Shown in pieces: positions 1 to 58,468 of a stretch of DNA of 64,000 nt; positions within the stretch are counted from its first letter, which is position 1; each line of letters starts with the position of its first letter. Source of the stretch: Squalus acanthias. Taxonomy: Eukaryota. The notes below the pieces were generated by a model. That model did no database searches and was not told where the DNA came from. It saw nothing but the letters and a program-made list of their open reading frames with translations. Both the position numbers and the translations under genes were made by a program. The stretch lies in the NCBI GenBank assembly GCA_030390025.1, contig CM059449.1:34658001-34722000 (forward strand), read 5' to 3'.

Positions 1-294
1 AATATATGACTCTCAGCTTGTGGCAACTAATGGCAATGAATCGATCAAAGGTGAAGGCGACTGTTAACCAGATGGAACAATCAATGGCAGCAAGTATCAG
101 GGTGAGATTGAGACTGCAGAGCAGAGTGTAGTTCAGGAATGAATGTGGGAAATAAATCTGCTGAACCTCATACAGAATTACATCAAATATCAGGACCAGT
201 AGATCTGCTGCTGCCATGGCCACCAGGTAACGAGTGATACATGTGGAGAGACCACACTTTCCACGGGAGAGAATTACAATTGTGAATAAATTCG
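1..294 (-). CDS. GPR139/GPR142-like class A GPCR, copy 1, coding exon 2 (partial; continues past window start)
   Basis: Acceptor ttgcag|CG at 295/294; open frame (A)NLFTIVILSRGKCGLSTCITRYLVAMAAADLLVLIFDVILYEVQQIYFPHSFLNYTLLCSLNLTLILAAIDCSIWLTVAFTFDRFIAISCHKLRVIY covers TM1-TM3 with the TM2 Asp and DRF motif; clearly paralogous to ORF 44586..45470. Confidence 0.9.
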
Positions 295-989
295 CTGCAA
301 TAAAAGAGGGAAAATTAAATTAATCATTATAGTCAAAACAAAATGGCCGGCAGGTAATGACAGTTTATCAAATTTCAGCACATATTTTCTACTACTCAAC
401 TCATGCTCTCTCTCTCCGACTCTGTATTTCTATATCTGTCACTGATTCTGACCATCCCTCTGTGTTGCTCACGATCTGTCTTTCTCCTGCCTCTCTCTAT
501 GTCTCAGTTTATTTATGTGTCGCTCTAATCATCTCTCTCTGTCTCTGTCGCTCTTCAGCTGGCATTTTTCTATCAGGGTATCTTAGGCCAGAATGGCTAT
601 GAGGGAGGGTTTAATGTACAGTATTAACCTGAAGTGCGCGCTTAACACCCAGGTCTACTCACTAGCACAGCTTGAGCTGCAAATTGGGACGGGTTTGGGA
701 GAAGGCAAAGGGGTAGAATTCAAATAAAAGGGATCGGAACAATAAAAGGGAGTGTCAGAATAGGGGTCAAGGATTCTGAGATTCTTTGGAGAGTCTCAGA
801 AGGCATCTCAACCCGTTATCCATCTTGGCCAGGGTGAAGGAATAGTGGACAAAGAAACAGGCAACTATGTAAAGAAAGGAAGCCCGAGGTTCAGGCATAA
901 GTTGGCAGACCGCGAGACGTGGCAATAGAGAGAAAACAATAATTCAATGGTTAAAGCACAGTTATCTTTACTGTGTATATTTTACTTGA

Positions 990-1315
990 GTTGCAGGATG
1001 TGGGCATCGCGGGCAATGCCGGCATTTATTGCCCATCCCTAATTGCCCTCAGTGACTTGCTAGACCACTTCAGAGGGCATTTGTTGTGGGACTGGAGTCA
1101 CGTAAAAGCCAGATGGCTCAGGACGGCAAGCTCCTTCTCTAAAGGATATTTGTGAATCAGTTGGCTCTTTATTAATCCTGGTCAATTTATGAATGCTACA
1201 TTTATTTTTATATCCATGTATTTTTTAACATAATTCACATTCTCGATCAGCCATGGTGGGTTTGAACTCACGATTTTTAGAACATTGGTCCATGTCTCTG
1301 GATTCCTAGTCCGGG
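990..1315 (-). mobile_element. tRNA-derived SINE whose 3' tail matches the LINE at 3011-5716
   Basis: 996-1050 is the reverse complement of the LINE tail at about 5645-5700; B-box-like GTTCAAACCC (minus) near 1258-1267; second copy at 19880-22155. Confidence 0.6.
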
Positions 1316-1550
1316 AGCAAAACCAAAGTCCTTTGAAGCAAATGGAAAAATAATCCAGCGAGTTTTCAAACAAGCTGTCAGTTCGCGAGCCCCGGTTTTA
1401 CACCTGGCGAGCAAAGTTCAGTATAAACTCTGTCTCTTTGATTCTTGCTTTTCTGCCTCTTTTGTTTAATCTCTTTTTATATTTCTGACTCTGTCGCTCT
1501 CTATCTTTCTCTCTCTCTCTCTCCCTGCCAGTTTCTTCTTTTTTGACTCT

Positions 1551-1732
1551 GGGTGAATTTTGTCTCGGACGGTAGCGCTAAACTGGCGATAGTGAATTGG
1601 CATCACATTCAGACCGTGCCCGAATTACTTTTCATTTTATTTCAATGGGAAAGAAATTGTGCGCGGAGTAAAACAGGTTCGGATTCGCTATGAGCCGGTC
1701 TCGAGCTGCTGCCGAAGACCTATTCCACCCCC
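1551..1732. mobile_element. Short palindromic non-autonomous DNA transposon (MITE), representative copy
   Basis: gggtgaattttgtctcgg ... ccgaagacctattccacccc inverted ends with a decayed central ccattgacttcaatgg-type palindrome; related copies near 6474, 23541, 26737, 28170, 30800, 32238, 32439, 34049, 34510, 36378, 37237, 38872, 42237, 44216, 56221, 56449, 62590. Confidence 0.6.
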
Positions 1733-1970
1733 AGTACTGCGAGACTGTGGTGAAAGTTGTTAAAATTGTTGGTGCTGAAACTGCAGAGACAATTGTAGCT
1801 TCCCTGGGAATTTCTGTGACGTTATTGAATTAAGGTTTCAGTAGAAGGTCGTGACATTTAATTGATCTCAGTAGAAACAAGCCCGTGAAAACAAACAGAT
1901 CACAGAATCAACTAGAGCAGTGATACAGGTAAACCCCGAGTGACATTGACAACTGATGGTAATGACTTAC

Positions 1971-2040
1971 CAGGAACACCAAACACTGCGAGAATCGGGT
2001 AGTAAACCGCTTCAATCTGGGCAAGGATTGGTCGATCCAT
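1971..2040 (-). CDS. GPR139-like GPCR copy 1, coding exon 1
   Basis: ATG at 2040, MDRPILAQIEAVYYPILAVFGVP+G then donor gtaagt; 70 nt, phase 1, joins exon 2 in frame as ...GVPANLFTIVILS, resembling GPR139 TM1 (VYY..L...GLPANILTVIILS). Confidence 0.9.
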
Positions 2041-2120
2041 CTCTTTGAGTCACACGAAGCCGGTGCTGGAGGCAACAGCTCAGTTTGACAAGAAGATGAA
2101 GCCGCTTCAATCCAATCCTT

Positions 2121-2230
2121 TATTTATATCTCAGAGAAATCTCAAGTGAGACAATTAGGTTACACAATAACTGACATTACTTACGGTCTTTTAAACAAAC
2201 AGATCAGGCAGCTGCTTTTACTACAATGAT
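2121..2230 (-). promoter_or_regulatory. Putative core promoter of GPCR copy 1: TATA box plus conserved motif block
   Basis: TATAAATA (sense) at 2121-2128; block 2134-2222 aligns by hand with 58374-58460 upstream of copy 3, sharing TCAAGTG, CAATTAG and CAGCTG. Confidence 0.6.
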
Positions 2231-3010
2231 TCTTGACTATTAGAAGGGTGGAACTTCTGATCGGAGACACTCTCTGATGAACTTTAACCTATTTGCCCTA
2301 CATTCCTGTGTGCACTAACTTCACAGAGATGATAACTCATTAATACACACAGGACTGTCAAAGTAAATTTGCCTCTTGCTTTTCCTCAAATAACTATAAA
2401 TTTGGCTGACAGCGCTTGCTTTTTACAGATTGATTTTTCTTCTCCTTAACTAGCCCACAACTTTCAGGTTTGGCTCAATGTTACCCTGTTTTCTGGTTCC
2501 AGAAGCTGTCACACGACTAATCTAATCGACCCATGTCCTCCTCTTATATCCTTTCACTCTCTCTATCGCATTCCTTGGTGAAAATTGGGGCTGAATATTA
2601 GTTTCTGTTAAATCTCTAACATTCTTTCTTCCTCTAGAAGATTATTTCCTTGCTCTATAATGAATCCTTCCCTTTATTTAACTATTATTTTGTTTTTTTA
2701 ATCTGTTCCTAAGAACCTTTACTATTTACCTGCCAGTGTTCCTTCAGACTTCTTATTACCAGTTCGAATCTTTTCTTTTCCGGTCTGTTTTTTTTCAGTT
2801 TGATTTCCTTTTACATTCGAAATGTCACTTGCTTTTTTAACTCTCATCTTAATTTTTATTTCAATTCTCATTCTAGGAATTCCAGCTTTTGGTGAGCTAC
2901 CTTTACTTGTGGGAATATGTCTAGGCTGTAGATTAATATTCCGCTGTTTGAATGATGCCCACTGTCTCTGCATTGCCTTATTGTAAAGCTTTCATTCCAC
3001 ATTTTCTGGC

Positions 3011-12001: not shown

Positions 12002-12029
12002 AAGGAGTCCACAAACTCTTTGGAAAATA

Positions 12030-19457: not shown

Positions 19458-19717
19458 ATTCTCACTCTTTGATGTATCACTACACACTGAAACATGGGAT
19501 TTCTGATCTTCCGGACTATAGTATAATGGAGGTTGTGGATGGCTGTGAGATAGACTATTGTGACAGCAATATGTACATAACAGTTCCAAGTAAGCAGTGG
19601 ATGGTGAATTCCTATGACACCAGTTACTGTGAGGAACTCACAATTACTGCAGCCAGTTTCCATGGAATCAGAAATGGCAAGTTTCCAGAACGTTACAGCA
19701 GAGGAACCTCAGTTCAA
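19458..19717 (+). pseudogene. MHC class I alpha1-domain pseudo-exon (paralog of 31940-32200)
   Basis: Acceptor ttctag|, donor |gtaagt; (D)SHSLMYHYTLKHGISDLPDYSIMEVVDGCEIDYCDSNMYITVPSKQWMVNSYDTSYCEELT...; 260 nt versus 261 nt (1-nt deletion near 19675-19692), W60>C, G26>E; no alpha2/alpha3 seen before 27353. Confidence 0.85.
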
Positions 19718-27237: not shown

Positions 27238-27352
27238 ACGGTGAGCTCCCGCACTGCCCACTTGTGAGTGAAGCTCGGCTCGGTTCATTCAAGACGCTCA
27301 GTCTTGTTCTGTCACTGGGAGAGACGGCGGGCGGACGGACGGACGGGACGGC

Positions 27353-27404
27353 ATGTTTCTGTCGCTTGTACTGAGTTTCTCCCGCCTACAAGCGGCCCTG
27401 TCTG
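27353..27404 (+). CDS. Non-classical MHC class I heavy chain, exon 1 (signal peptide)
   Basis: ggcATG TTT..., MFLSLVLSFSRLQAALS+G, donor gtgagt, phase 1; joins alpha1 as ...ALS-ESHSL. Confidence 0.8.
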
Positions 27405-29714: not shown

Positions 29715-30076
29715 TTTAGTCCGGGATACACCAACTGCCCCCATGTTTAGTCCGGGATACACCGACTGCCCGATGTTTCGTCCGGGTTACACTGACTGTT
29801 CTGTGTTTAGTCCGCGTTACACTGACTGCCTCGTGTTTAGTCCGGGATGCAATGACTGCCCCGGTGTTTATTCCCGGTTACACCGACTGCCGCATGTTTA
29901 GTCGGGGATATAATGACTGCCCCAGTGTATAGTCCGGGTTACACCGACTGCCCTCTTGTTTAGTCCGGTTTACACCGAAAGCCGGCTTGTTTAGTCCGGG
30001 TTACACTGACTGCCCTCTCGTTTAGTCCGGGTCACACTGACTGACCCAGTGTTTAGTCCGGGTCACACTGATTACC
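29715..30076. repeat. 30-31-bp minisatellite, ~12 copies, in MHC intron 1
   Basis: Unit tttagtccgggttacac(c/t)gactgccc..(a/g)tg repeated head-to-tail without spacers. Confidence 0.9.
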
Positions 30077-31939
30077 TCGGACCTTGCGAATGCCCTGGGG
30101 GAGCTCCTGTGTTGATTGAAATAGTGATGTGACGCTACGGGCTCGTGTGGCGCTGGACGCTTAAGAAACCTGCCAGAGAGTTACTGCAGCACTGAAGTAA
30201 AGTCCCTCAATCATAGATGGGGATTTGTGCGGTGAATCAGGCCGACGTGTTGCCAACGTTGGTTGGACTCATTCCATGATCTTTCATCACATGAGCTCCA
30301 GCCCAGTCAACCCGCCTTTTGTCCCCAGCTCCAATATTGTTATAATTGTGATTGTTCTGTTGTTGTTGTTATTTTTCTCCCGAGTTTCTTGCGGCGGTGT
30401 CCAAGCGGTTCATCTTTAATTCCTGGAGCCTCCGGGATAGTCCTGGAGGTTTGGTTAACCTATGCTCCTCCCGCCCGATACATAAAGTGGTGGAGACTGT
30501 ATATTTTTTGTGATCCGGCTTCATTTACATGAAATGAGCGCCAAGCCCTTTTGATTTAAAGGCAGCCTGCAGTCCCTTAAAGGGACGGTTCACTTTTCAA
30601 GGGTGGTTAATGGAGAGCGACTTACTGGAGCAGCAGTTTGCATGACCTGGTCAGCTGTCCTCCGATTCTCTGGGGCAGCGGTAGAAGCGCTTGTAGAGCA
30701 AGTTAGCTCCGGTATGGAGGATCTCGATTCTTCTAATAGGTAACGATAGGCCCGTCAAATTAGTCAGCTGCAATGACGAGATGTGGATGAGCAAGCCAAT
30801 GGCAGCAACATTGGGCATAAAGTGCACGGTACCCGAAAGCGGCTGATGGCGATCGACAGCCTGTTTTGGTCTATCGACCAATTTTCTTTTCCAATGAGTT
30901 CAATCGAATAGAAAGTCAGGTTGTAGGCAAACCTGGCTGCTGATTCGCTATCGCCCATTTCGCGCTGCCGCCCAAGACAAATTTATATTCAATTTTCCCA
31001 AGAATCTGGCTGCATTGCAGGAAGAAACTTAAAGACCTCACCAGGACCGCCAAGGTCAGACTCGGCTTCACATCTCTCTTACTGTCTGCATGGCCTCGCA
31101 CCGTCGGAAGTTAACCGCTGCACTACCAATCCTTTCCTCCCCACTTCCCATGGCTCTCCTCCAATCACAACAGACCCTTCACTACATTCCACTGTGGAAT
31201 TACCAGAAGCCCATTAACAGTTCAAAATATTCAGCAGCCAGTACAAGCATTTTAAATGGTTTAATTAGTGAAATCCCACAACATAATACAAGAAAAATGT
31301 CTCCCAAATATTTCAGCATTTTATTTGAGACCAACTGAGGATGCCTTTAATATTTGCCTCCCGATTGGTTCCATTTTGCAGGCAGGATCAGGAACTAGCG
31401 GAAAAAATGTGGGCAGAGAGGGAAATGTTGTTGAGCGCCTTGATAACGTCTTTAACCCCAATTTGCATATATTCAAGCTGCTTTTCCCCCTCTTTCGCTC
31501 AGTAAATCTGAGGCCAATTTTAATGTCGCTACAAGCAGCAGACTGGGAGCAGATCACTGCGCACGCACCAGGGCTGGATTCTGCATGGCTTAGTACCATA
31601 ATTCTGGGTGCACTTCCTCACTAATTCACCAAAGAATCCCCAGGTCAGACGTGGGACTAAAATCTTCAAGTTACGATTTACAAATGAGATGAGCTGATGT
31701 AATTTATTTCAACCTTCAGATTTTTCATTTATTTCGAAAATGGGAATATTCTTGTAATTGGATAAGATTTAATATTAAGGCTCATTTTGCCTTCTCTGCA
31801 ATGGTTTAACACGGGAGCGATGGCAAAATATCCAGTGATCTCTCATTTTTCTGAATAAATTGCTTTTTCCCAAGTTGTTTAGAAAACAGACATTTCTAAT
31901 ATTTGATATGCCAATGATATTTTTTTTATTATGTCCTAG

Positions 31940-32200
31940 AGTCTCACTCACTGCTATATTACTACAGCCTGAACCATGGGAGTGCTGATCTGCCGGAGTA
32001 TAGTATACTGGGACGATTGGATGGCTGTGAGATAGACTATTACGACAAAAATATGGAAATAACTGTTCCAAGACAGCAATGGATGGCAGAAGCATTTGAG
32101 AAGAGTTACTGGGACGAATACACAATAACTCAAGCTGGTTTCCACGGACTCATCAAGGGACAGGTTGATAGATGGTTCCAGCAGAACAACCTAACATCAA
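31940..32200 (+). CDS. MHC class I heavy chain, exon 2 (alpha1 domain)
   Basis: cctag| ... |gtgagt, 261 nt, phase 1/1; ESHSLLYYYSLNHGSADLPEYSILGRLDGCEIDYYDKNMEITVPRQQWMAEAFEKSYWDEYTITQAGFHGLIKGQVDRWFQQNNLTS with H3, Y7, D29, the PRQQWM motif, Y59-W60 and the N86 glycan site. Confidence 0.93.
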
Positions 32201-32769
32201 GTGAGTGTATTCGTTTGAATGAATGCAGCGAACGACAGGGGTCATTTAAACTTGGGGGATAGTGTAACATGAGTGATATCGAACCGCCTGATATAAACCC
32301 GCCTCATTTTCCCTTCCATTGACTTCAATACAAATGAACATAAGGCGAGTTGTATAATGGACAACTAATTGGATATCACCCATTTTACTCCCTCTTTGGA
32401 AGGTAACATTAACCCCAATGAATGATATTGGTGATACTGGGGGTGAAATTCAGTGTTGGTGAGTGTAAAATGGGCAGTAGCAGCGAGGCCGCCCTTTATA
32501 CATGCTGACTGCTTTTCCTTTCCCTTCACGTCACAGTAAAATGGGCCGGGTTGTATAACAGGCGACTTTTCCGTTGCCACCCGTTCAGCAACACTGCTTA
32601 AGTTGATTTCACATTCAACACCAGATAAAACCCGGGCGCCTGTGAATCAGCTGTTGTTTTACACCTCAATCGATTTTCTGAAAATCGGACATGGTGTACT
32701 ATTTTGGTGCACACTATAAACAAATAAACTGTAACTAAAAAAAACATTAAAGGAAACCGAACAACTTTT

Positions 32770-33167
32770 ATTAAAATTTGGTTACGGGGGTGAAGATGCA
32801 CTCAAGTCCCTCTGGTGCCCACCGGTCGCGGAAGGTCACGAGCATGCAGGCAGACACCGCGTGCTCCATCTTCAGTGCCACCCGGGCGTGAACTTGGCCG
32901 TGGGAGAGAGGCCGGCAGTCGGGCCGAACGACCTCTCGACCGCCCGCTGCCTGGACCAGTTGATGGCCTCTTTGGCCAGGAGCAGTCCTACGAGGAGATC
33001 CCCCGATCTGTCTGCTCCCCTCCGCACCGGGTGACCAAAGATCAGGAGCGTGGGACTGAAATGCAGCCAAAAATCGAGGAGCAGCCCCTTCAAATAATGG
33101 AAAAGGAGCTGCAACCTCTCACATTCGATATATACATGGAACACGGACTCCTCCAGGCTCGGACATG
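32770..33167 (-). mobile_element. L1/Tx1-clade LINE 3' fragment (ORF2 C-terminal zinc-knuckle region)
   Basis: CPSLEESVFHVYIECERLQ...LLLAKEAINWSRQRAVE; ends near an aataaa A-rich tail. Confidence 0.7.
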
Positions 33168-33355
33168 ATGTAAAGTGTGCGGCCGATTCAGCATTGGTCA
33201 TATTTCACCTTTGATAACAGTTAAAAATCCGCCCCTCCTCACCAACACCAGTGTTTATTGAATGATATTTGTATTATTACATTTAATTAATGATATTTGT
33301 GATGTTATGTGTATTTAATTGTTTTGCTGGTATTTTACATGTAAGTAATCATAAT

Positions 33356-34035
33356 GGGCTAGAAATTCGGCTCCCTGGCTTCCCTCGGGTGCAATGATCG
33401 CACGCGCACCTACCTACCTGCCTGCCATTGACCCCTGGGCCCGCGGAGGATTCGGCTCCTGGGCCTCCTCCAACTGCCGGCGCGCAGTGCTTGCCTATCC
33501 CAGGGGCGTAGTTAGTGCGACGCGTGCCCTGTGATCACGTGAGCCATGGAGAGCCAATGGCAGCAGACCATCTTTCATTCATAGATTTGACAAGAAGACC
33601 TGTCAAATCTATGAATACAGATCGGCCCCAAAACATCCCTAAAACTACAGATAAATTTAAAAAGAAACATCACGGGGCTAAAACTAAACTTACCTTTGTT
33701 TAAAGTAATTAAAAAAGATAAATCTGTGAAAAAATTGTTTAAATTTTAATAAAATCAACACTTACCTTGTTAAAAGAAGGCCTTGCGCCTGCTTTTTCAA
33801 TGTGCATCTTCTCCGTGCTTACCCTCACGGAGGATCCTGTAAAAAAAAACGATGTGCGAGGCGAACGCGCTGGCCCTCCGGCGTGCGCGTTCGACCTCTG
33901 AACCCCTTCCTTCAGGGGAACGGAAGTGCCGGTTACCCGCGTATGCGCAGTGCATGCAAGAAACCGGCACTTTCGTTCCGTCCACGGGTTAGTACACAGT
34001 GCGTACTCACCCATGGCGAGCCTAATTTCTGCCCC
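33356..34035 (+). mobile_element. MITE (related to 9932-10694)
   Basis: TIRs gggctagaaattcggctc / gagcctaatttctgcccc, flanks aat/att. Confidence 0.75.
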
Positions 34036-35032
34036 ATTATGTTTATTGGGGTAATTTTTAACTCTTCAGCAAAAGAGTAAAACGGCCAATATTGGACCGA
34101 CCGCCCGTTCTACACATCGCTCGCATTCCCTTTCAATTGGGCGAGGTTTATAACAGGCCACTGACCCGATATTGTCCGCTTTACACTATGACCACAGTTT
34201 AAAATTAACCCCCCCATTCATGGTAATATTACTTTTAATGAATGATATTAATAACACATTTATTTAATAACATTGGAAATAACCAATTAATTGAATCATA
34301 TTGGCAGTATTGTGTTTATTAAATTATATTGGCAATATTGAATTGAAGTATTATTATTCATATCATTGCATTTGCTCAGTGATATTGGTAAGCACATATT
34401 TGATATTTAATGTAGATGTGTACGTTTGAGGTTACAATGCCGTCTTATAATGCGCAGGTGGCTTATCAGAAAAGCATAATGCACTGCCCGCAGTTTTCTA
34501 TTCATTTGGAGTTAACTTTATATTTGGGCAATAGTGTAAAATGAGCGAATGCGAACTGACTACCCAATACACTCCCTGTCTGATATTCTCTTCCGTTGAC
34601 CACAATGGATATGAAAATCAGGCGGGGTGCAAAATGGGCGGACGATCCAATATCGCCCATTTTACACTCTCACCCAAATTCAAAATTACCTCCATGGAGA
34701 CAAATCCATTGTAACAAGGATGGATGATAGGGAACGTTAGCCTATGCTGTGCAATCATATATCAGTCCCCAACTTAATGTCATACATTCTGGCATGTATT
34801 CTGGCAGCTTTGGCTAATATTCTGGTAAGTTATTTATAGTTAGGTAACAACATTACTAGAAAATTGTGACGGTGAGAAGTAGAGTTGGTTTATACACGGG
34901 AGTTTTCCAGAAATATATGTTGAAGAGTTGGGCAACAAAACACTGAGGCATTATAGCGCCACCACTGGAGTGAGCGTGCAATTGCAACGGGCTGACTTTA
35001 CATCGGCAACTCCCATTTCAAATGTGGGCATA

Positions 35033-36015
35033 TAGAATCATAGAATAATACAGCACAGAAAGAAGCCATTCGGCCCATTCGTGCCTGTGCCGGATGTTTG
35101 AAAGCTATCCAATTAGACCCGCTCCCCTGCCAAATTCCCCATAGCCCTGCAACGTTGCCCCTTCAAGTATTGATCCAATTCCCTTCTGAAATTCACTATT
35201 GAATCTGCTTCCAGCATCTTCTCAGGTAATGCATTCCAGACCATAACAAATCACCGCGTTAAAAACATTCTCGTATCGGCTCTGGTACTTTTTCCAATTA
35301 CCTTAAATCTGTGTGCTCTGGTTACTGACCTCTCTGCCGCAGGAAACAATTTCTCCTTATTCACTCTATCCAAGTCCTTCATGATTTTGAACATGAATTC
35401 AGAGGAATTGATAATGGGAAGAAGTTCATAAAAAATGTGACAACAGGAAGTAAGAACCTAAGAAAATAAGAAATAAGAGCAGGAGCAGGCCATTTGGCCC
35501 CTCGAGCCTGCTCTGCCATTTAATGAGATCATGGCTGATCCGATTTTGGCCTCAATTACACTATATTGCCCGCTCCCCATAACACTTGACTCCACTGTTG
35601 CTCAAAAATCTGTCTATCTCAGCCTTGAATATATCAATTACTCAGCTTCCACAGCTCTCTGGGGTAAAGAATTCCAAAGATTCACGAACCATTGAGAGAA
35701 GAAATTCCTCTTCATCCCCGTCGTAAATGGGCGACCCCTTATTCTGAGACTGTGCCCCCTCCTTCTGGATTCCCCGACGATTGAAAACATCCTCTCAGCA
35801 TCAACCCTGTCCAACCCCCTGAAAATCTTATATTTTACAATAAGATCAACTGACATTCTTCTAAACTCCAATGAGTAAGGCCCAACCTGCTCAACCTTTC
35901 CTCAGAAGACAACACTTCCATTCCAGGAATCAACCTAGTGAACCTTCTTTGAACTGCCTCCGATGCAAGTATATCCCTCCTTAAATAAGGAACCAAAACT
36001 ATACGCGGTACATTG
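35033..36015 (-). mobile_element. Two CR1 LINE 3' fragments (35033-35392 and 35452-36015)
   Basis: atagaatcatagaa and aagaaataagagcagga tails; FFSQWFVNLWNSLPQRAVEAE, EAVQRRFTRLIPG. Confidence 0.8.
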
Positions 36016-36940
36016 TGTGGACAGGTAGTACATAACATTTCTAATATAATATAGATAGATTTATAGTTAAATACCAACATTTATTTAATTTGGAAAGCAG
36101 AGAAGTAGAATTTTTTGGAGCACAGCAGTTTCTCTGGGAAATGCAAAGCTAAGTCCGAAAGTGCCACCACCGGTGGGGAGGTGTAATTACATCATGACCA
36201 GCTTACGGTGGCAGCTTCCTTATAAAGGTGGCCATAGGAATTTATAAAGGGAAATGTTAACATAAATGTAATAGAAATGTGACAATAGGAAGTATGCTTT
36301 TGTGGACAGGAACTGCCCACAGGTGTAAGATTTTTTTAAATTTTCTACTCAATTTCCTGTGGTGTTGCATATGTGAGGGGTAATTTTAACTTTTGGTGAC
36401 AGTGTAAAATGAGCGATATTGGGTCGGCCACCCATTACACACACCGCCCAATCTTCCCTTTCATTGGGGCCATGGTGAATTGACAGCCCATTTTACATCT
36501 TTGAATTTAATAGAAGAACAATGGTTGGAGTGTAAAATAGGCTGCTGATTCGCTATGAGCCCATTTCGCACTACTGGAAAAGACCAATTTCACCTCGTCT
36601 GTATTTTGTTAAATGGGGCATTGAATATAACATCAGGGACTTGATGTTGACTTACAGGAGATATTGGTTAGGTCACTGTTGGGGTCTTTCATGCAGTTCT
36701 AAGCACCTAATATAGCAAGAATATTACAGAAGACAGCTGTTGTTTAACTTTGGTGCCAATTGTTCTCTTTCTGTGGTTTAAATTCTATGTCCCTGTGTGA
36801 TGAACCTTGTTTTAGACACTAAACTCAATTTCTACCCTTAGTAATGGAAAGAGTGACTACAAAATAACTGAAATTCTTAGATTTGGTGTGACTAGATGTG
36901 ATAATTATGTATCTATTGATTGATTCAATTTCTGTTCTAG

Positions 36941-37216
36941 GTACTCACTACATTCAAGGACTGTTTGGCTGTGAGCTGAATGATGCCAATCCTAGTGTAG
37001 GGGTTTTGAAATTCGCTTATGATGGAAGATACGCATTTAGTTTCGATAAAGACAAATTGGTTTGGACTGTACATGATCCAGTAGCTCAGACCCGCAAAGT
37101 GAAATGGGATAAGGAAACAAAGATGAACCTTTATTTCAAGAGCTTGTTAGAAAAGGACTGTGCTGATTTATGGAGGAAATACTATTCAATTGGAAAAGCA
37201 TTACTAACCAGACAAG
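36941..37216 (+). CDS. MHC class I heavy chain, exon 3 (alpha2 domain)
   Basis: ttctag| ... |gtaagt, 276 nt; STHYIQGLFGCELNDANPSVGVLKFAYDGRYAFSFDKDKLVWTVHDPVAQTRKVKWDKETKMNLYFKSLLEKDCADLWRKYYSIGKALLTRQ with H93, Q96, C101, YDG, W133, C164. Confidence 0.95.
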
Positions 37217-37444
37217 GTAAGTTCAGAAGAAACTGGGAGTAATTTTAAAGTGTGGCGATAGTGTAGAACTGGCGATATTGGATCAGCTTCCGTTACACAC
37301 CTCTTCCCATTCTCCTTCAACAGGCGGCTGATCCGATATCACCTGTTTTGCACTAGTGGCAAAAGTTAAAATGACTTTATTCATTCTATTCTGAAATATG
37401 CGACTTTTATTGAAGTAGAAAATAACTGTCGTTCTATCATGTAG

Positions 37445-37711
37445 TTTCCCCTGAGGTCTCAGTTATTGCCAGGGCTGGTGATCGTTGGTTTCTCCACTGC
37501 ATTGTGACTGGATTTTTCCCGCAGTCCATCAGCGTGACCTGGTTGAAGAATGGAGAACATGCCCCTGAGACCAAATCTACTGGGTTATTACACAATGAAG
37601 ATGGGACGTATCAACTAACAACAACCCTTGAATTTGATCCGTATGATGGGAAACAATACTCCTGTCTTATTGAGCACAGCAGCTTGCCGGGTGGGAAGAC
37701 AGTCTCCTGGG
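37445..37711 (+). CDS. MHC class I heavy chain, exon 4 (alpha3 IgC1 domain)
   Basis: catgtag| ... |gtaagg, 267 nt; VSPEVSV...LHCIVTGFFPQSISVTWLKNG...NEDGTYQL...YSCLIEHSSL...VSW (C1-set C, W, YxCxxEH). Confidence 0.95.
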
Positions 37712-39265
37712 GTAAGGACATGAACAGCGATACTGAACAATCCATCAATAATAGCAACACTCACCCATACAGAGATAGAGAGTAGAAAGAGATCAATGAA
37801 ATGAATTACTGAACCAAATTGCACATTACCCCCCTGCTTTTCTATTCTATTTCTCTAGAAATGAACCGGATATTCTGTCTCCCAGTGATGTTTATTTGTT
37901 ACTATTGGGTCGTCTGTGCTTTTGCTGATGGACAAGAACAGGAAAACTGGAATCTTCCACTCCCACTAACTGTCTTTTCTTGTCCGTCACTTTTCTCTGT
38001 CTTGTTCTTTCTCTCTATTACATTATACATCAGACAACACGTTTATTATCTCTGTACTTCAGCTTGTCTGTGACTGTTAATCATTCTTGCTCTCATTTAG
38101 TCCATTTCTGTTATCTTCTGACTCTTCCATAATATGCACCTACCCCTCAGTGTGTGCTTCTCACACAGTTGCTTTCTCTATATATCTTTCCCATTGCTTC
38201 TTACTGTCTATCTCCACCACATACCCACACACACCACACGGTCTCAGAGTTAGACAAACAAATTAATCGCTGTTGACAGTCTATCTGGGTTAGAGAATGG
38301 ATTAATCTACATTCACCACCCACTCTCAGATATCAGACTCTTTATTTGCCCGACTTGCTGTTCCTTCACTCTTTGTTTCTGTTTTCTCATTGTTGTTCCC
38401 TTTCACTGTGGTGATGGTGCTGCTCGGTTTCTGAGCTGAACTTTTGCTCTGTGCTGAGCTATTACCCTCTCAGCCTCCGTGTGTTTTTGCTTCTCTTGTC
38501 TCTTTGCTCTTTTGGGGATGAGAGGACGGGTCACTTTGGGATATTAGAGGAGTGGGGAAGTGTTGTGAGGAAAGGTCATTAAAATGTAGTGCAGTGGGGG
38601 GAGGGGGGATAAAATAATGCGGCCTGGCGACAAGGGTGAGTCTGAGGCTGGGCTTCTGAGGCGGGGAAGGGCCGAAGTGCACTGGGAGCTGCAGGCAGGG
38701 AAGGTGAGGGGCGGTGGGCTTTGCCCAGAAAGCAAGAATCTGCAGCAAGAATGATGGTTGGGACAGCTGGAAGGGGGACCCCTGGAAATCAGCATATAAA
38801 TTGCTTTTGTTGATTAACAGGGTCACCAAATCTCTCCAGGGGAACCTCCTGCTATTGGTTTAGACACAGCGGCGTAGATTTTCAACCTGCCGCCCGGGTG
38901 TAAAACCGGAGTTGCCTCCAATGGGAATAAAAAGCGGGCAGTTTGTGTGACAACCGGTGATCCACAGGGGCAGGTTCACACCAGAGCGGCGCAGTGAACA
39001 TCTACCAAAAATTGTTTAATAGATAACGGTGCTGCTCATTCAGGTCTCTCCATGGAAAGGTGCCTCCCTGAGGGGAACAGGTAGGATGATCCTTCTGATC
39101 TGGAAATGTAATTCTGATCGGTTACTGCGCCGATCCTCTGCTGAGGGCAATTTCCAGATGTTGTGGCCCAACCTGTGCAGGTCGCAGTTGTTTATGACAA
39201 TCCCTTCAATTAGACAATCGGATCACTAAAGGTCAGTTTTATAAGCTGCATATACACAGCTTCAT

Positions 39266-39667
39266 NNNNNNNNNNNNNNNNNNNNNNNNNNNNNNNNNNN
39301 NNNNNNNNNNNNNNNNNNNNNNNNNNNNNNNNNNNNNNNNNNNNNNNNNNNNNNNNNNNNNNNNNNNNNNNNNNNNNNNNNNNNNNNNNNNNNNNNNNNN
39401 NNNNNNNNNNNNNNNNNNNNNNNNNNNNNNNNNNNNNNNNNNNNNNNNNNNNNNNNNATCTCTNNNNNNNNNNNNNNNNNNNNNNNNNNNNNNNNNNNNN
39501 NNNNNNNNNNNNNNNNNNNNNNNNNNNNNNNNNNNNNNNNNNNNNNNNNNNNNNNNNNNNNNNNNNNNNNNNNNNNNNNNNNNNNNNNNNNNNNNNNNNN
39601 NNNNNNNNNNNNNNNNNNNNNNNNNNNNNNNNNNNNNNNNNNNNNNNNNNNNNNNNNNNNNNNNNNN
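39266..39667. repeat. N-masked (TC)-rich simple repeat
   Basis: N runs 39266-39457 and 39464-39667 separated by atctct and followed by gtctctctatctgtctctc. Confidence 0.6.
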
Positions 39668-40672
39668 GTCTCTCTATCTGTCTCTCTCACTGTCACTCTC
39701 TCTCTCTCCTACTTTTTGTCTCTCTGTCGCTCTATCTGGATTTCTATCTGTCTATTTTGGAAATGCTGAGTGTGGTCAAGATTCCAAAGCTGCTTCCCCA
39801 ATCTAATATTACATTAGGTGACAGATTGAAAATGATAAGGTGCCGCCTATTGTTAAACGATACCACAAAGCTGAACTTGCAGTATATTGAGAATGAACGT
39901 TAAAAAAAATTGAGTCTGTATGCAGTTACAGACTCTGACCACTGAGTGTCACTGTGGGGCATTCTGGGTTTTGGAGACTGCAGCCATGTTGCTGCAGATA
40001 AGTAAAAGCAGATAAACATTTTGCTCCGTGAATTAAATGTAAACTTTGCACCTTGAGCCGCCTTCCATCACACGGACATGTGGGGACGGTCAGAAGCTCG
40101 ATCCACACCCCTGGGAGCTGGCATAGTGGCATAATCTATTCAACTGCCATTCCTTACCCCTCATATTGCTCCTTTCACCAGGCCCGCAGACACAGGCCTC
40201 TGCCGCTTTCCTACCTGGCTCCCCTCAGTCAGCGATCCATGGGGGGTTGGGGAGGAGGGGACAGCTAGCTTACCCCCTGCCTCGCTGGGCACCACGACCA
40301 CAACCCTTTTACATTAGCCTCCCAGCAGCACATTCTTATCGCTGGCCCAGCCACGATCAGTCCACAGACCATGCTTCACTCTTCACAGCCACTGCTTCTT
40401 CCCCCACCAACCCCCAGTCACCTTTACAGCCTGACCACCTCTCGTTGACCAGAACCTGTGGTTATTCACAAAAGTGAACTTTGTGGTTTTAAAGAGACCT
40501 AGCTCCACCTTAGTGAAATAATTCATTGTGCACTATATGGTGTGGGGATACTGTCCATAGAAAGTAGCACATCATCCTAATTACCATGAGCAGGGCCATA
40601 GGTTTCCACAGATTGTATATAAAACTGTCAATCCGCACATATAATTATACAACCCTTGCTAATCTTTTTCAG

Positions 40673-40780
40673 AAGGAAAAGTAGAGAAAGACAAGCATGT
40701 GGGGCTGATTGTCGTGTGTGTACTGGTATCGCTGGCTAATGTTATCGTGTTAATCTATATTTGGAGGAGAAAATGGAGAG
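40673..40780 (+). CDS. MHC class I heavy chain, exon 5 (connecting peptide + transmembrane)
   Basis: ctttttcag| ... |gtaagg, 108 nt, phase 1/1; EGKVEKDKHVGLIVVCVLVSLANVIVLIYIWRRKWR (hydrophobic run then basic stop-transfer). Confidence 0.85.
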
Positions 40781-40899
40781 GTAAGGCGAGTGAATAATGT
40801 TACACTCTTGTTTGTAAAATTATTACACAGCGGCTTTGCAGAACATCATTTGTCCTGCCCCAGAATTATATTTGAATTTAAAATATCTGTTATAAAGAA

Positions 40900-41312
40900 A
40901 AAAAGAAAAAAATGCGTTTATATCGTGCACCTTTCACGACCTCAGGACGTCCCAAAGCGCTTTACAGTCAATGAAGTACTTTCTTTTTAAGTGCAGTCAC
41001 TGTTGCAATGTAGGAAACGCAGCAGCCAATTTGCGCACAGCAAGTTCCCACAAAGAACGGTGTGATAATGATCAGATAACCTGTTTTTAATGTTGTTGAA
41101 TGCGGGATAAATATTGGCCAGGAAACCGGAGTGATCTTCTCTGCTCTTCTTGGATATAGTGCCATGGGATCTTTTACGTCCAGTTGAGAGGCACACGGGG
41201 CATCGATTTAATGACTCCTCCGAAAGACGCCACCCTCGACAGTGTGGCACTCCTTAGTACTTCACTGGAGTGTCAGTCTAGATTTTTGTGCTCAAGTCTC
41301 TGGAGTGGGATT
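40900..41312 (-). mobile_element. SacSINE1/DeuSINE-like SINE, near full length
   Basis: Tail, central domain (gccatgggatcttttacgtcca..tgagagg, tttaatgactcctccgaaagac) and head region (ctcaagtctctggagtggga). Confidence 0.75.
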
Positions 41313-42752
41313 AAAATGGTTCATTTATTAACTTGTGTAAGAACAACTGGAATTTTATCGAGGGAAAGTTTACTAATGGAATTCTATATTTAATCACAGG
41401 AGGTATAGAACCTAACAGCCAATTAATAACTATGAGCCTCTATAAAACCTTAGTAAGACCTGAGTTAGAGCAATGTGTGCAGTATTGAATTTCACGCAAT
41501 ATGGGGGATCTTTAGCTTTCGAGAAGCTACAAGGTGGATTCACTAAGATGCTGCCCGAAAGAAGGAAACACAAATGCAGAGAAAGACTTGGAAAATGCGC
41601 ATTTTTATTCAACAATGCATATTACGGGTGATATAATAGAAGTGTTTAAAATGATGAAAGAATAACTCAGGGTAGATAGAAGCAGACTGTGTCCATTAGT
41701 TGAGGATCAAGCTGGAGGATTTATAGATACCAGGTTAAATTTTAGAGATTTAGAACAGAGGGTAGGTGACGATTCTTTTCACAGAGGGTTGTAAGGCTGC
41801 GGAATCCGCTTCCAGTGATAGAGGTTTAATAACCTTCCTGATTTTGCATTAGAACATTTACCTTCTCTTCGAATAAGCCACATTCACACTGCAGCCTTTG
41901 GATCCCTAAGGACTGGTTTGGCTTAACGCCGGATGTTTTCGTGGAATTCCAGACTCAGGACCCCACCTGACTACCAGGTGAAGTACAGTGAGACTGCCTC
42001 CTTCAGAATATTCCTTCAAACCAAATCTAAGGTGGAGATGTAAATGGTTTCCGAGTGGCAATGAGGTAAAAGATGGAAATATAATCAGAAGGTTACAAAG
42101 TGGACTAGAACTCCCAGGTTTTAAACACCTTCCGACAGATTTGAGTTCCCAGAGTGCATCATTAGGGCAAATATTGCCCGTGTCTACTGCGGTCATGGCA
42201 CCTTCATAGGGGCAAGACAGGGAGGAGAGTCATTGGGAGTCATTTTCAGATTTGGAGATAATGTAAAACAGGCGTTATCTGATCAGCCGTCCGTTCAGAC
42301 TTCACGGAAAGTACAACTTGGGAGGTGTATAACAGATACCCGATCCGATATCCTGTTCACATGAACGCCAACAAATACAATGACACCCATGGGGGTATAA
42401 ATTTGCCGTGGGTGGTAGTTTAAATTGGGCGATACTGACTCTGCAGCCCGGCAGTACAAGCAAGTCTCTTCGGTTCCATCCCCTGTGGAACTGATTGGAG
42501 CCTTCACAACGTCAGCGGGAGGATAAGGCTACCGGCCCCATTTGGAGGCCATTTACTCCGTTTACTCCGGGCGAGGGCTGTGAGAATTGACCGCCCTTTA
42601 GGCCCGCTGCTCCTGTGCACCAAACTAACTGCCACTGAGCTACATGTAAGGGGAAGAACCATGAAAAGTTAATGAACAAGTCAGTGCATTCTCTGTACTG
42701 TGCTCTGCACCATCATCTCTGGATTTTCTAACATTTGTGTTTCACTCCCTAG

Positions 42753-42829
42753 ATTACAATGTTGTTTCAACAGAACCTGAAAGTTTCCATCGTGAGATTT
42801 GCATTGGATCCAAGAAGACGCAGGAATAA
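42753..42829 (+). CDS. MHC class I heavy chain, exon 6 (cytoplasmic tail, terminal)
   Basis: Pyrimidine tract ttcactccctag|; phase-1 frame DYNVVSTEPESFHREICIGSKKTQE*; AATAAA 184 nt after the stop. An internal gtgaga at 42792 could be an alternative donor. Confidence 0.65.
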
Positions 42830-44585: not shown

Positions 44586-45475
44586 TTATTTCCTTAACTT
44601 AGTAATTAGAGACAGGGGATATTGAATCAGAATCTTTAACTCCTCTCTGAATTTAGTCTGGGACACTGCATAAATAATGGTATTTGTGCAGGAACTCAAA
44701 TGTTGCAGCATATATCCAGTTTGTTCCATGATGGTGAAAGGATTACTGTAATCTGTGTGCAAATATTGAATTTCTGTAATTTGTGCACAGATATAATGAA
44801 TAAAAGTTACCGTCCATAACATTATAAAAGTGCCAGATATGACAAGCAGTAAAACGATGGATTTCCTGCGGTTGTCCATTTCTGGGTCACTGTCGCTGCT
44901 TCGGAGACCCCTCCTGATTCTACTTGTCAGAAGAATGTGCCGGATGGTGAGACCATTGAATATCAGAATCAAAAGAAACGGAATAAAAGGCATTAAAACT
45001 ATGTCAAGCCATATGAATGTAACCCATATAGGTACAGTATAGGAGCTTGATTTCACATCACAGAACCACGGTAAATTGTCAATTATTACGCGAGGTTCTA
45101 AAGTAAAGTAAATGGGGATGTTTTCCAAAATGCTCAGCCCCGATATGGTTGCTACAACCACCGCCGCAGTTTTTTCGTTGCAATATTGAGTCCTTATTTT
45201 CTGGCAACAGATGGCGACAAATCGATCAAAGGTGAAAGCGACAGTTAACCAGACAGAACATTCAATAGAAGCAAAAATCAGGAACAAATTCATACTGCAG
45301 ACCGGAGTGTAGTCCAGGAATGAATCCGGGAAATAAATTTCATTCATCTCATACAGGACCACATCAAATATCAGGACCAGTAGATCTGCCGCTGCCATGG
45401 CCACCAGATAAATAGTGATGCATTTCGAGAGGCCGCACTTTCCCCGGGAGAGAATCACAATGGCCACCAAGTTTG
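44586..45475 (-). CDS. GPR139/GPR142-like class A GPCR, copy 2, coding exon 2 (intact, TM1 end to C-terminus)
   Basis: Acceptor tttgcag| at 45476; open 7TM frame with AMAAADL, C3.25 (PVCSM), FDRF, ECL2 WFC, PFIPF, LW, SSCTNTIIY and helix 8 FREEL; exon 1 not found. Confidence 0.92.
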
Positions 45476-55172: not shown

Positions 55173-55180
55173 ATTGAGTT

Positions 55181-56094
55181 TCAATTTTTGTGAAGCCATA
55201 ACTTAACAATTAGAGACAAGGGATATTTAAGGATATTCTTCAGTTCCTCTCTGTACTTAGCCTGAGCCAATGCATAGAAAAATGTGTTTGTGCATGAACT
55301 CAAGCACTGAAGCATATATCCAGTCTGCTCCATGTTGGCGAATGGATCATTGTAATCTGTGAGCATAAACTGAATGTCTGCAAATTGTGTACATATGAAA
55401 TGTACAAAAATTACCATCCATAACAGTATAAAACAGCGAGAGATTGCCAGCAGTAATATGATCGATCTCCTTCAGTTCTCCTTCTCTGGATCACTGTGAT
55501 CCTCACTATTGTTGTTTCCCCGGAGTCCACTCCTTACTCTGCTGGCCCGGACAATGAACCTGATGGTCAGGGCATTGAGCAGCACAATCAACACAAATGG
55601 GGCAAATGGTGTTAGGACGATGTCAAAGAAGAAGTATGCTAAACAAATAGGTGAAGTAGAGAGGCTTGATTTTAAAATACAGAACCACGCTACATTGTCA
55701 ATAATTTCCAGGTGTTGATTTTCAAAGTAAATTGGAATGTTTTCTACAAAGCTCAGTCCAAACACAGTCGCTATTACTATGGCCGCAGTTCTTTCAGTGC
55801 AATATTTTCCTCTCAACTTCTGGCAACAAATGGCGACGAATCGATCAAAGGTGAAGGCGAGAGTTAACCAGACGGATCAATCAATGGCTCTAAAAACCAG
55901 GGCGATATTGAGACTGCAAACGGCAGTGTAGTTCAAGAAAGAATTTGGGAACTAAATGTCATTAATCTCATATAGTATTACATCAAATATTATCACCAGT
56001 AGATCTGCCGCTGCCATGGCCACCAGGTAACGAGTGATACATTTAGAAAGAGCGCACTTCCCACGGGAGAGAATCACAATCGCCACTAGATTTC
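55181..56094 (-). pseudogene. GPR139-like GPCR copy 3, exon 2, pseudogene
   Basis: Acceptor ttgtag| at 56095; full 7TM homology in one frame but TAG at 55952-55954 (Tyr of IYFP), TGA at 55877-55879 (Cys of IDCS) and TGA at 55472-55474 (Arg of ENRR). Confidence 0.92.
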
Positions 56095-58224
56095 CTACAA
56101 AAAACAGATAATACATAGAAAACGTACTAATTACACTCAATTCACATTAATAATCAGTTTGAGAATATGTTTTATGGAAATTAACTCGGGATATTTTGTG
56201 CAGTCGCCTAACTCAGTAATGGGGTGAAATTGGTCTCGGGCGGTGGCGCCAAACCGGCTCACAGCGAATCAGCAGCCGGTTTCACACCGCGTCCAGTTTA
56301 TGTTACCTGAAAAATCATTAACTGCCGCAGAATGAAGTGACATTGCCCAGGTAACACGGCGCTCCACAGACAATACGGTGATCAGACACATTAGTGCAAC
56401 GTCCATACAATTACTGAGAACACACAAGAGGCGAGCTGAGATGACCAGGGGGTAGATCTTGATATTGTGCATTAGTGTAAAGGGAGGATAGCGAGTCGGC
56501 CGCCCATTTTACACCTCTCCTGATTTCCCTTTCCAAATAGAACTAATAATCGGGAGAGATGTAAAACTGGGCGATAGCGTAAAACAGGCGATATCGGATC
56601 AGCTGCCCATTATCATTCTCTCCCAATATTCATTTCCATTGAAGTCAAAGGAAATAAATATCGGGAGAGATGTTTAACAGGCGGTTGATCCGAAATCGCT
56701 CGTTTTACAATATCGCCCAATGTCAAAATGACCCAAATTAATCAATGAATCGGTGAATCCCGGAATCAAAAATTCAAGAATCAACGATCAATGAATGAAT
56801 GAATCAATAAATCATTGAATCGTTCAATGAATGTTCAGAACATTGCAAAATACTAATGCAGGTGCTGAATATGCCTTGTGTGCGTGTTGATTCGACCGTC
56901 TGAAATTCCCACAGTTAGTCTAAATATATTAACGGACTTTGACTAAACTTTGTCGTTTTTCCTCGCATCCAATATATGGACTACGTCGAATTTGTACCAT
57001 AGATGATTAATTTTTTATTAGTTTCCCAATTCATCACGCCATTGAACTGTCTTGAATACTCAGTCCGCAGTTTGTTAACAGCCGCTCTTTTACTGTGATG
57101 TTTTGTACTAGAGTCTGTCCGTCACTCAGTCCTGTGCTCTATGTGGGGCGGGTTACATCTCTTTTTCAAATTGTACAGCCCTGGCCAACATTCTCAATTG
57201 ACTTTATTTACAAGGTGTATCATTTTAGAGAAACAATAAAGAATACGCGAGAACATAAATTCAAATTGTCAACTTTTACACTACATTAAACTACTTAAAA
57301 TAACAAGAAATGCCCCAGAGCTTAGAGTTTATCCAGATAATTTAATTAGCTGTTTGAGGAATGTAACTGGAGCGCATCTTTCCTGAAGGAATCTCAAGGC
57401 ACTGCTCTGGTTCATTAATTAAACAGAAGCGAATTGCAAACTGATTGCTTATAATCGTCTTGGCACAAGGATGAGCGAGGGTTTGTTGAGTGATTATTGA
57501 GGGTGCGCTCCTCTATCTCGGGTTCCTTGGATGGAACTGGCTGTTGCAGAATTAGGCTGTTCCCAGAAGTGTGGTTTGAGAGGCCGCTCTCCTATCCCGA
57601 CTCATTAGATGAAAGAACCACCTCCATCAAAAGTTAGGAATGTGTGAAAACATTACACTTTGCAAAAAGCCAAGATTACAAACACACTGGATCATTTACA
57701 TTAAAGGGAAATGCGAAACGACGGAAAATCATTCTGTTCGCAACTTTGGAAAATGAATTCCCGAAAATGTACCAGATGTGCACCGTGTACAACATTATTT
57801 CAAAGTCTGTATTGGGAACATGGATGTTGTCAGCGCTGTGGATGCTTTTCTACGTTAAAGGCGTTAAATAAATGCAAACTGTTGACATTTTAAAAAACAT
57901 GGCTTTACAAAACATAACTACAGATTGAAATGAAGTTGAGTTCTACTGCTGAATAATTAATACAACAATAGGATTGTGGGACGACCATTGACTCCTATGT
58001 GACAGGTTTACTGAACTCAGTATATTCACCCAGGCTGAGTGGCACCGGCTTAACATTAATCAACCTGCTGTTTACATATATATCAGGCCGTATTGATTGC
58101 TTTGTATTAAACTATTTCACTGACAATAATTAGAACTGTACATCTGAACAGATGACATTATTAGACCGGCAGCAAGAGTAGTAACACTCTGCAAAACAAG
58201 GAATAACTGATTATAGTATCTTAC

Positions 58225-58294
58225 CAGGAACAACAACCAGTGCAAGAATAGGATAGAACTTTTCTTCTATCTGTGGAATTATAGGTCGTTCCAT
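58225..58294 (-). CDS. GPR139-like GPCR exon 1 (copy 3; intact 70-nt exon)
   Basis: MERPIIPQIEEKFYPILALVVVP+G, donor gtaaga; same length and phase as 1971-2040. Confidence 0.85.
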
Positions 58295-58360
58295 TTTCTT
58301 AGAGGCGAAGTTAGCTCTTGTTGTGATTCTTACACCGATGCGATGTATTTAAATGAAACC

Positions 58361-58468
58361 AAATTATAATTTTGAGAAATGTCAAGTGGACAATTAGGTC
58401 AGGTGATAATTGATATTAGTTGCAGTCACGTAAAACAACGATTAAACAGCTGATGTTACTCCACTGCT
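58361..58468 (-). promoter_or_regulatory. Conserved GPCR promoter block (paralog of 2121-2230)
   Basis: gagaaatgtcaagtggacaattaggt...ataattgatattagttgcagtc...aaacaacgattaaacagctgatgttact aligns with the copy 1 upstream region; TATA-like ATTATAAT. Confidence 0.6.

Follow-up and report, generated by a model that had tools for sequence, protein, structure and literature searches.

The window, a stretch of 64,000 nucleotides of Squalus acanthias DNA, carries GPCR1 on the minus strand, a class I alpha1 relic and a class I gene (UGA) on the plus strand, and then GPCR2 and the pseudogene GPCR3, both on the minus strand. This five-part arrangement had been given in a preliminary description, which holds for order and strands and falls short in that the window ends within GPCR1, exon 1 of GPCR2 is missing and the class I relic is one exon. 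The features are as follows.

1..294, minus strand: GPCR1 exon 2, 5' part only and continuing beyond the window edge, rhodopsin-class orphan receptor
1971..2040, minus strand: GPCR1 exon 1, 70 nt, ATG at 2040, GT donor
2120..2228, minus strand: GPCR1 proximal promoter block, conserved with GPCR3, with its core motif at 2139-2159 and a TATA-like box
19458..19717, plus strand: frameshifted orphan UGA-type alpha1 exon (pseudo-exon)
27353..27404, plus strand: UGA exon 1, intact signal peptide (tblastn 88% to the P0121 leader)
29581..29631, plus strand: additional leader-like exon that lacks 1 nt and reaches a stop after six codons
31940..32200, plus strand: UGA alpha1 exon (9CH4 E 1.5e-41, next entry 6.9e-11)
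36941..37216, plus strand: UGA alpha2 exon (Pfam MHC_I; 9CH4 E 7.4e-41, next 3.3e-16)
37445..37711, plus strand: UGA alpha3 exon, C1-set Ig (Pfam and gene model)
40673..40780, plus strand: UGA connecting/transmembrane exon
42753..42829, plus strand: UGA cytoplasmic exon, YNVV motif, stop
44586..45475, minus strand: GPCR2 exon 2, with an AG acceptor and an open frame of 296 codons
55181..56094, minus strand: GPCR3 exon 2, three in-frame stops (pseudogene)
58225..58294, minus strand: GPCR3 exon 1, open frame, GT donor
58360..58467, minus strand: GPCR3 proximal promoter block with its core motif at 58379-58398

Sixteen further long ORFs were scanned and four of them contain Pfam families, namely RT in two, an endonuclease in one and a GDSL-type domain in one, the last of which we take to be a LINE ORF1. 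LINE-like remnants occupy approximately 23% of the window and self-repeat 31%, and two N gaps are present, both of them outside the interval that extends from the last UGA exon to GPCR3. Within the window, no tRNA (ARAGORN) or Rfam family was matched and no MHC framework gene was found, and its 25 longest self-matches include no block in which a receptor and a class I gene were duplicated together.

The class I gene possesses six exons with GT-AG boundaries throughout and an open frame of 346 amino acids, and is thus the complete class Ib gene that had been claimed. Its leader, alpha1, alpha2, C1-set alpha3, transmembrane and tail exons, all in phase 1, are those of an MHC class I heavy chain; the alpha2 and alpha3 disulphides are present, a glycan site lies at the end of alpha1, and AATAAA occurs near 43015 on the 3' side. 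YNVV in the tail is a YxxPhi-type motif, one of which is carried by 7 of 12 homologue tails, and the YxxPhi tyrosine motif is the endosomal sorting signal of CD1. Incipient decay of the gene was rejected, since it shows three changes at otherwise invariant columns compared with one to nine in its homologues. The segment at 29581..29631 was considered as the UGA leader, which would yield a frameshifted gene, and was dropped in favor of the true leader at 27353; judged by eye, it is similar to the Heptranchias isoform X2 (P0122) leader. The orphan alpha1 exon shows 75% identity over 291 nt with a net 1-nt frameshift, and no alpha2 or alpha3 partner for it was found in the window.

The homologue P0121, which is 82% identical to the window class I protein, shows 70-71% identity to PDB entry 9CH4, titled "shark nonclassical MHC class I, UGA", and scores 466 bits against it, the next entry scoring 189. 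By such match scores, rather than by a tree of UFA, UDA and UEA sequences, the window gene is assigned to the shark UGA lineage. The AlphaFold model of P0121 is poor (pLDDT 59) and its rmsd values are meaningless, so only the titles of the matched PDB entries were used. Among nine peptide-anchoring positions, in HLA numbering, five are kept (7, 59, 146, 147, and 171) and four are replaced (84, 123, 143, and 159), as placed by landmarks and a 6LUP alignment. The gene therefore departs from the set of peptide-terminus anchoring residues of classical class Ia (UAA); its description as non-classical is borne out, and conventional peptide binding seems improbable, as had been proposed. UGA itself is already known: a review (PMC12562908) presents it as a class Ib lineage that is CD1-like, binds lipids and is linked to the MHC, where the lipid claim consists of one review sentence together with the PDB title. 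No primary paper on lipid binding by UGA was found in the literature searched, most subscription papers lying outside its coverage.

The receptors belong to the rhodopsin class, with a Pfam 7tm_1 score of 80.9 bits, DRF in 109 of 123 rows and W6.48 in all 120 of 120. One search returned 2,399 relatives, confirming the large cartilaginous-fish expansion that had been claimed; it is a very large one in elasmobranchs. No window receptor is shown complete, as GPCR1 leaves the window 98 codons into exon 2, GPCR2 is without exon 1 and promoter, and GPCR3 contains three stops. An HMM built from 61 homologue exon-1 peptides detected in the window only the exons of GPCR1 (46 bits) and GPCR3 (30 bits), the next match scoring 3.8, and nhmmer with the promoter and exon 1 likewise returned only the GPCR1 and GPCR3 sites there. 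The three receptors are 65-76% identical to one another, and each falls into a separate clade with relatives from other sharks: GPCR1 is 87% identical to Pristiophorus P0032, in a clade that includes sawfish P0073, GPCR2 85% to Heterodontus P0002, and GPCR3 85% to Pristiophorus P0006, the GPCR1 and GPCR3 clades also holding ray or skate members. Judged from this placement, the window receptors are old paralogues rather than recent local duplicates. Of the dead copies described as one in each family, the receptor one is the GPCR3 pseudogene and the class I one is a single exon.

The core motif of the receptor promoter has two matches in the window against 0.00 expected, at GPCR1 and GPCR3; a looser pattern gave chance-level matches only. 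The motif search of the window found no such element near UGA, and the proposed co-regulation of UGA and the receptors finds no common proximal promoter element to build on. The receptor promoter motifs have a neural or endocrine look.

Just 22 residues precede the exon junction in 56 of 66 shark receptors, and 64 of the 66 lack an N-terminal sequon. The reported absence of an N-glycan sequon is thus accurate for the N-terminus only, as extracellular loop 1 carries one in GPCR1, GPCR3, and 75 of 120 relatives. A short sequon-free N-terminus is also found in all 18 full-length amphibian relatives, and by these sequences a short, putatively unglycosylated N-terminus is a family-wide trait, amphibians included, which counts against the suggestion that it signals a need for trafficking help.

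The best PDB sequence match of the receptors is human GPR139 (E 1.1e-8), by a marginal lead over motilin (6.5e-8) and CCK (1.2e-7) receptors. In GPR139, the L-Trp/L-Phe pocket involves R244(6.51) and E108(3.32) (PMC7318219); the window receptors have Thr or Ile at 6.51 and Ile at 3.32. Arg is outside the six commonest 6.51 residues among 120 relatives, in which this position is mostly small or apolar, and the residue differs between paralogues. GPR139 orthology was rejected, as R6.51 and E3.32 are absent and the receptors are nearer to an amphibian "GPR139-like" receptor, located by profile search; the aromatic amino-acid ligand extrapolated from GPR139 and GPR142 fails with the loss of the same two residues. 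An Atlas search returned only "probable GPR139" chordate clusters and FMRFamide/Srw-type neighbors. The amphibian and sturgeon receptor possibly corresponds to the "Orphan 139-like" or "NMOGPR" rows of PMC5207463, where the table gives "unclear".

UGA and receptors occur on one contig in six of eight comparable species, a count that rests on contigs of identical size and one published sawfish table, and their regional linkage predates the shark-ray split. The Heterodontus contig of 74,466,956 bp holds 26 receptor matches and one UGA match, with 3 of 29 receptor matches located away from it. In Heptranchias, UGA and a receptor lie within one 529,794-bp scaffold and 33 of 34 receptor matches lie elsewhere; this scaffold is short, and the main receptor cluster may therefore still adjoin. 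The sawfish MHC table lists ten "receptor 139" genes flanked by two class Ib clusters, with B2M and BRD2 alongside; these ten of 13 form an unbroken run at 13.38-13.68 Mb of chr34 that includes no class I gene, and the remaining three adjoin C4 and TRIM39-like genes. The sawfish UGA homologue is MHC-linked (contig of 19,913,265 bp; the chr34 table ends at 19.83 Mb), and the nearest gene of the same name, matched by product name only, starts approximately 345 kb beyond the receptor run. Linkage in more than one species, and linkage to the MHC, are thereby upheld, and the recurrence of interleaving is upheld as regional linkage only, direct interleaving being absent from the sawfish table. The paper that maps the elasmobranch MHC region leaves the receptors out of its main text and lists them in its supplement, where the white shark and catshark sheets carry no product names. 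No description of the UGA-receptor pairing or of the receptor expansion was found in the literature searched, which left most subscription papers outside its coverage, so that absence is unproven; the available parts of a TLR/MHC preprint contain no passage on these genes, and those of PMC12294341, PMC8514136, and PMC11643622 nothing about the pairing.

Based on these observations, the intact UGA gene and the old cluster of orphan class A GPCRs probably occupy the elasmobranch MHC class Ib region independently of each other. UGA may pair with beta2-microglobulin, cycle through endosomes by its tyrosine motif and present lipid to lymphocytes. The receptors, with a compact TATA promoter of their own, would form a separate, diversified repertoire that senses small molecules, for which a sensory-neuron or endocrine-type chemosensory cell is the leading, still tentative, candidate site. 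The interleaving of UGA and the receptors probably arose by local duplication or rearrangement in a repeat-rich multigene region without functional pairing. The mismatch in copy number between UGA and the receptors counts for independence, as do the sawfish receptor run and its distance from the UGA-named gene, the promoter motif seen at receptors only, the lack of a jointly duplicated block and the variation at 6.51; the ancient linkage counts against it, as selection for proximity could also have produced it.

That linkage also favors a looser connection, in which the receptors would sense lipids or microbial metabolites for immune or mucosal purposes, share a tissue with UGA and stay in the MHC through shared long-range regulation, without contact. 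The loss of the basic 6.51 residue that amphibians keep, in favor of mostly small or apolar ones, and the lipid binding of UGA (PMC12562908) would suit it. We consider it unlikely in view of the family members on other contigs in Heterodontus and, with the caveat of its short UGA scaffold, Heptranchias, of a catshark GPCR3 relative on a 144,966,053-bp contig when genes on the MHC chromosome of the catshark extend past 152 Mb, and of the look of the receptor promoter motifs. It is very unlikely that an assembly artefact, or a rearrangement that is decaying, confined to one species and without function, accounts for the tight interleaving or for the lack of exon 1 in GPCR2: the N gaps, the self-repeat, the relics of both families and the promoterless GPCR2 could suggest so, but the sequence runs gap-free from the last UGA exon through GPCR2 to GPCR3, regional linkage is common to other species, and degradation of UGA does not exceed that of its homologues. 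An MHC class Ib chemosensory repertoire co-expressed with UGA, reading UGA-carried lipids or dependent on UGA for delivery, is likewise highly improbable. The pairing originally proposed, with UGA as an H2-Mv-like chaperone, ligand carrier or co-receptor co-regulated by lying among the receptors, draws on the interleaving, the regional linkage and the short sequon-free N-termini, and is very unlikely given that amphibians share this N-terminus and are reported without CD1-type genes (PMC12562908), that the promoter element is not common to both, that a CD1-like role for UGA is in print (PMC12562908), that the sawfish table shows no interleaving, that V2Rs are class C and the shark receptors class A, and that the H2-Mv chaperone role is itself doubted: according to PMC6211456, H2-Mv is missing from many V2R neurons, and deletion of the cluster reduces responses without abolishing them, making the mouse precedent weaker than claimed.

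The overlooked part of the locus is the receptor cluster, ancient, orphan, and MHC-embedded. Automatic annotation has mislabelled these receptors GPR139, and the class Ib block of the elasmobranch MHC holds a sizeable share of them; the window helps to position UGA beside the cluster. Sharks and their relatives have few odorant receptors. If chemosensory, the cluster would be a large unrecognised receptor family and a second independent receptor cluster lodged in the MHC; if co-expression or lipid reading were true, it would form an independently evolved class Ib/receptor sensory system for MHC-linked chemical recognition in sharks.

Of known systems, shark UGA (9CH4) is by far the closest match for the window alpha1 and alpha2 domains, and L159 and a small or apolar residue at 123 are common to the lineage. 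The window gene differs from its homologues in a read-through of approximately 20 residues beyond YNVV, which lengthens the tail, in Arg at 143 (Phe in 9 of 12), in His for an invariant alpha3 Pro, and in the extra, broken second leader exon. Compared with human GPR139 and GPR142, the shark receptors keep F3.33 and W6.48 but not R6.51, E3.32, or P6.50. With the amphibian and sturgeon "probable GPR139" they share 26-32% identity (BLAST E to 2e-45) and a short N-terminus with a YP motif; that receptor retains P6.50 and a basic 6.51, the latter lost in sharks, and gives one match per species (20 amphibians and one sturgeon), whereas sharks have tens each.

Mouse H2-Mv (M1/M10) and V2R likewise combine class Ib molecules with an expanded GPCR family, with nine H2-Mv genes (PMC6211456) against low-copy UGA in sharks. 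The mouse pairing rests on co-expression rather than adjacency, whereas the shark case is known from gene positions.

The mammalian extended MHC class I region contains an odorant-receptor cluster. Both this cluster and the shark one, as seen in the sawfish table, comprise tandem GPCRs and pseudogenes amid TRIM, butyrophilin, and tRNA genes. In contrast, the shark receptors belong to another family, possess two coding exons, and lie in a class Ib block beside B2M and BRD2.

The lasting lead from this locus is an ancient cluster of orphan GPCRs, embedded in the MHC and mislabelled, of which no description was found in the openly licensed literature searched. As a lead, novelty rests with these receptors, the class Ib gene belonging to a lineage already known. 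The observation of the locus in the preliminary description was largely real, and splicing of the window returned the same gene order: GPCR1 (-), class I alpha1 relic (+), class I gene (+), GPCR2 (-) and GPCR3 (-).

from 294, leaving the window, minus strand: GPCR1 exon 2, partial
2040-1971, minus strand: GPCR1 exon 1, from splicing of the window
2120-2228, minus strand: GPCR1 promoter block, conserved with GPCR3
19458..19717, plus strand: orphan class I alpha1 exon, frameshifted, 75% identical to the live alpha1
27353..42829, plus strand: UGA class I gene, six exons, all GT-AG, 346 aa
45475-44586, minus strand: GPCR2 exon 2, open frame
56094-55181, minus strand: GPCR3 exon 2, three stops
58294-58225, minus strand: GPCR3 exon 1, open frame
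58360-58467, minus strand: GPCR3 promoter block, conserved with GPCR1

The surrounding DNA is repeat-rich and of vertebrate type, with 745 N in two gaps and approximately 23% LINE-like remnants; among them, at 7364-7762 and 2987-5573 (+), are fragments of a GDSL/esterase-type ORF1 and of endonuclease/RT. Tandem arrays lie at 14711-14864 (43-bp unit) and, within UGA intron 1, at 29715-30079 (a minisatellite of 11.7 copies of a 31-bp unit). Exon 1 and the promoter of GPCR2 were not found by two separate searches of the window, and thus a whole receptor is demonstrated nowhere in it. A 12.7-kb splice from GPCR3 exon 1 (58225) to GPCR2 exon 2 (45475) would yield a complete receptor. Of the six annotated relatives that share the GPCR2 clade, five likewise lack a normal exon 1, which annotation error may explain.

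The alpha1 and alpha2 domains of the class I gene each match PDB 9CH4 with E values of about 1e-41 (next entries, 7e-11 and 3e-16), an entry released in March 2026 and titled in fold searches "Crystal structure of shark nonclassical MHC class I, UGA"; by sequence, the gene is a member of this already named and crystallised lineage. A review (PMC12562908) describes UGA as CD1-like, as binding lipids and as a class Ib lineage linked to the MHC. The proposed dead class I copy is present as a relic, but consists of one alpha1 exon alone. The alpha1 search gave 12 homologues out of 22 candidates, all from sharks and rays, with whole-protein identities of 57-82%. Peptide-anchoring positions are replaced at 4 of 9 in the window UGA, by HLA numbering, and Leu occupies position 159 in all 13 sequences (window UGA plus the 12 homologues). 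The tail carries YNVV, with a YxxPhi motif in 7 of the 12 homologues; a signal of this type routes CD1 to endosomes. Degradation of the gene is not out of the ordinary. At 27320-27352 (+), the upstream start that several homologues possess is apparently changed to ACG in the window, followed by a short GGAC repeat; translation would then start from the second Met, a situation shared with two of the Pristiophorus copies. A second leader-like exon in intron 1 (29581-29631, +), 1 nt short and similar to the Heptranchias isoform X2 leader, points to an ancient alternative first exon that is broken here, either in the species or in its assembly. Three UGA-like clusters (P0121, P0123 and P0125) occur in Pristiophorus, versus one match per other species.

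With GPCR2 exon 2 as the query, 2,399 proteins matched at E<=1e-10 among 4,128 candidates, and the best 120 comprise 116 named shark, ray and skate proteins, mostly "probable GPR139", and four unnamed. The GPR139 identity did not hold, as human GPR139 matched at E 1.1e-8, marginally better than the motilin and CCK receptors. R6.51 and E3.32 are among the GPR139 residues for amino-acid binding in the part of PMC7318219 consulted; neither is conserved in the window receptors, and residue 6.51 differs from paralogue to paralogue. On these residues and scores, the receptors are not GPR139. A nearer relative, at 26-32% identity, occurs as a single match per species in 20 amphibians and one sturgeon, and may, as a lead, correspond to the "Orphan 139-like" group, named without detail in a table of PMC5207463 in the part consulted. 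The amphibian relatives retain P6.50 and a basic 6.51, whereas the shark receptors lack P6.50. In TM6/TM7 of the latter, the usual prolines 6.50 and 7.50 are missing (mostly Val; NTxxY), which may confer unusual signalling mechanics. In a midpoint-rooted FastTree of the best 120 of 2,399 matches and the three window receptors, with all rows kept, GPCR1, GPCR2 and GPCR3 fell in separate clades; GPCR1 was joined by a protein from sawfish and GPCR3 by proteins from skates, indicating that the array is older than the shark-ray split.

Linkage was counted in the eight species having a placed UGA match and at least one receptor among the best 120, with contigs equated by the size in bp reported with each match. 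Mobula (UGA, no receptor among the best 120) and Pristiophorus (without contig data) lie outside the count.

Receptors on the UGA contig, among the best 120 of 2,399 matches
Heterodontus: 26/29
Stegostoma: 6/6
Rhinoraja: 5/6
Pristis: 1/1
Chiloscyllium punctatum: 1/2
Heptranchias: 1/34 (529,794-bp scaffold)
Cetorhinus: 0/1
Scyliorhinus torazame: 0/2 (probably different assemblies)

The sawfish UGA contig is consistent in size with chr34, the MHC chromosome. In the portion of the sawfish supplement consulted (Verissimo et al. 2023, PMC10751288), the order runs from BRD2 and B2M through three marked class Ib genes, then ten "receptor 139" genes, then U1/TRIM genes and a further four class Ib genes, to COL11A2 and RXRB, and three more receptor copies adjoin C4 and TRIM genes; "G-protein", "GPCR", "coupled" and "olfactory" do not occur in the main text. 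A "hereditary hemochromatosis protein homolog" at 13.25 Mb, amid marked class Ib genes and itself unmarked as MHC-Ib in that portion, may be a further member of a class Ib lineage. Contig linkage together with the sawfish order places the receptor cluster as a genuine resident of the class Ib region. Beyond the species of the window, regional linkage stood (several species and the sawfish MHC), but interleaving with class I did not in the sawfish order consulted. A catshark GPCR3 relative lies on a contig too small for the catshark MHC chromosome.

The most likely reading, and one we consider quite probable, is that UGA and the receptor cluster would be passive co-residents of the class Ib region; the age of their linkage stands against it. 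The copy numbers of receptors and UGA are far apart, and no receptor and class I co-duplication was found in the window. The X. tropicalis relative lies on a 164,033,575-bp contig, which we take to be chromosome 5 and not chromosome 8, the MHC chromosome. GPCR1 and GPCR3, two old paralogues, have in common a compact promoter of approximately 100 bp including a TATA-like box, whose core motif occurs twice against 0.00 expected. Its words, which we take to be E-box, homeodomain and NK2-type, may point to neural or endocrine cells. For the suggested co-regulation with UGA, this promoter gave no support: its core motif was not found at UGA. An N-terminal sequon is absent in 64 of 66 shark receptors, but the special trafficking need read from this was not borne out, as all 18 full-length amphibian relatives likewise lack one; a loop-1 sequon is present in 75 of the best 120 shark receptors. 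A receptor-chaperone system of UGA and the receptors is unsupported and very improbable. Its precedent, the pairing of mouse H2-Mv with V2R receptors, is itself weakened, the chaperone proposal for H2-Mv having been undermined by later work, according to the part of PMC6211456 consulted.
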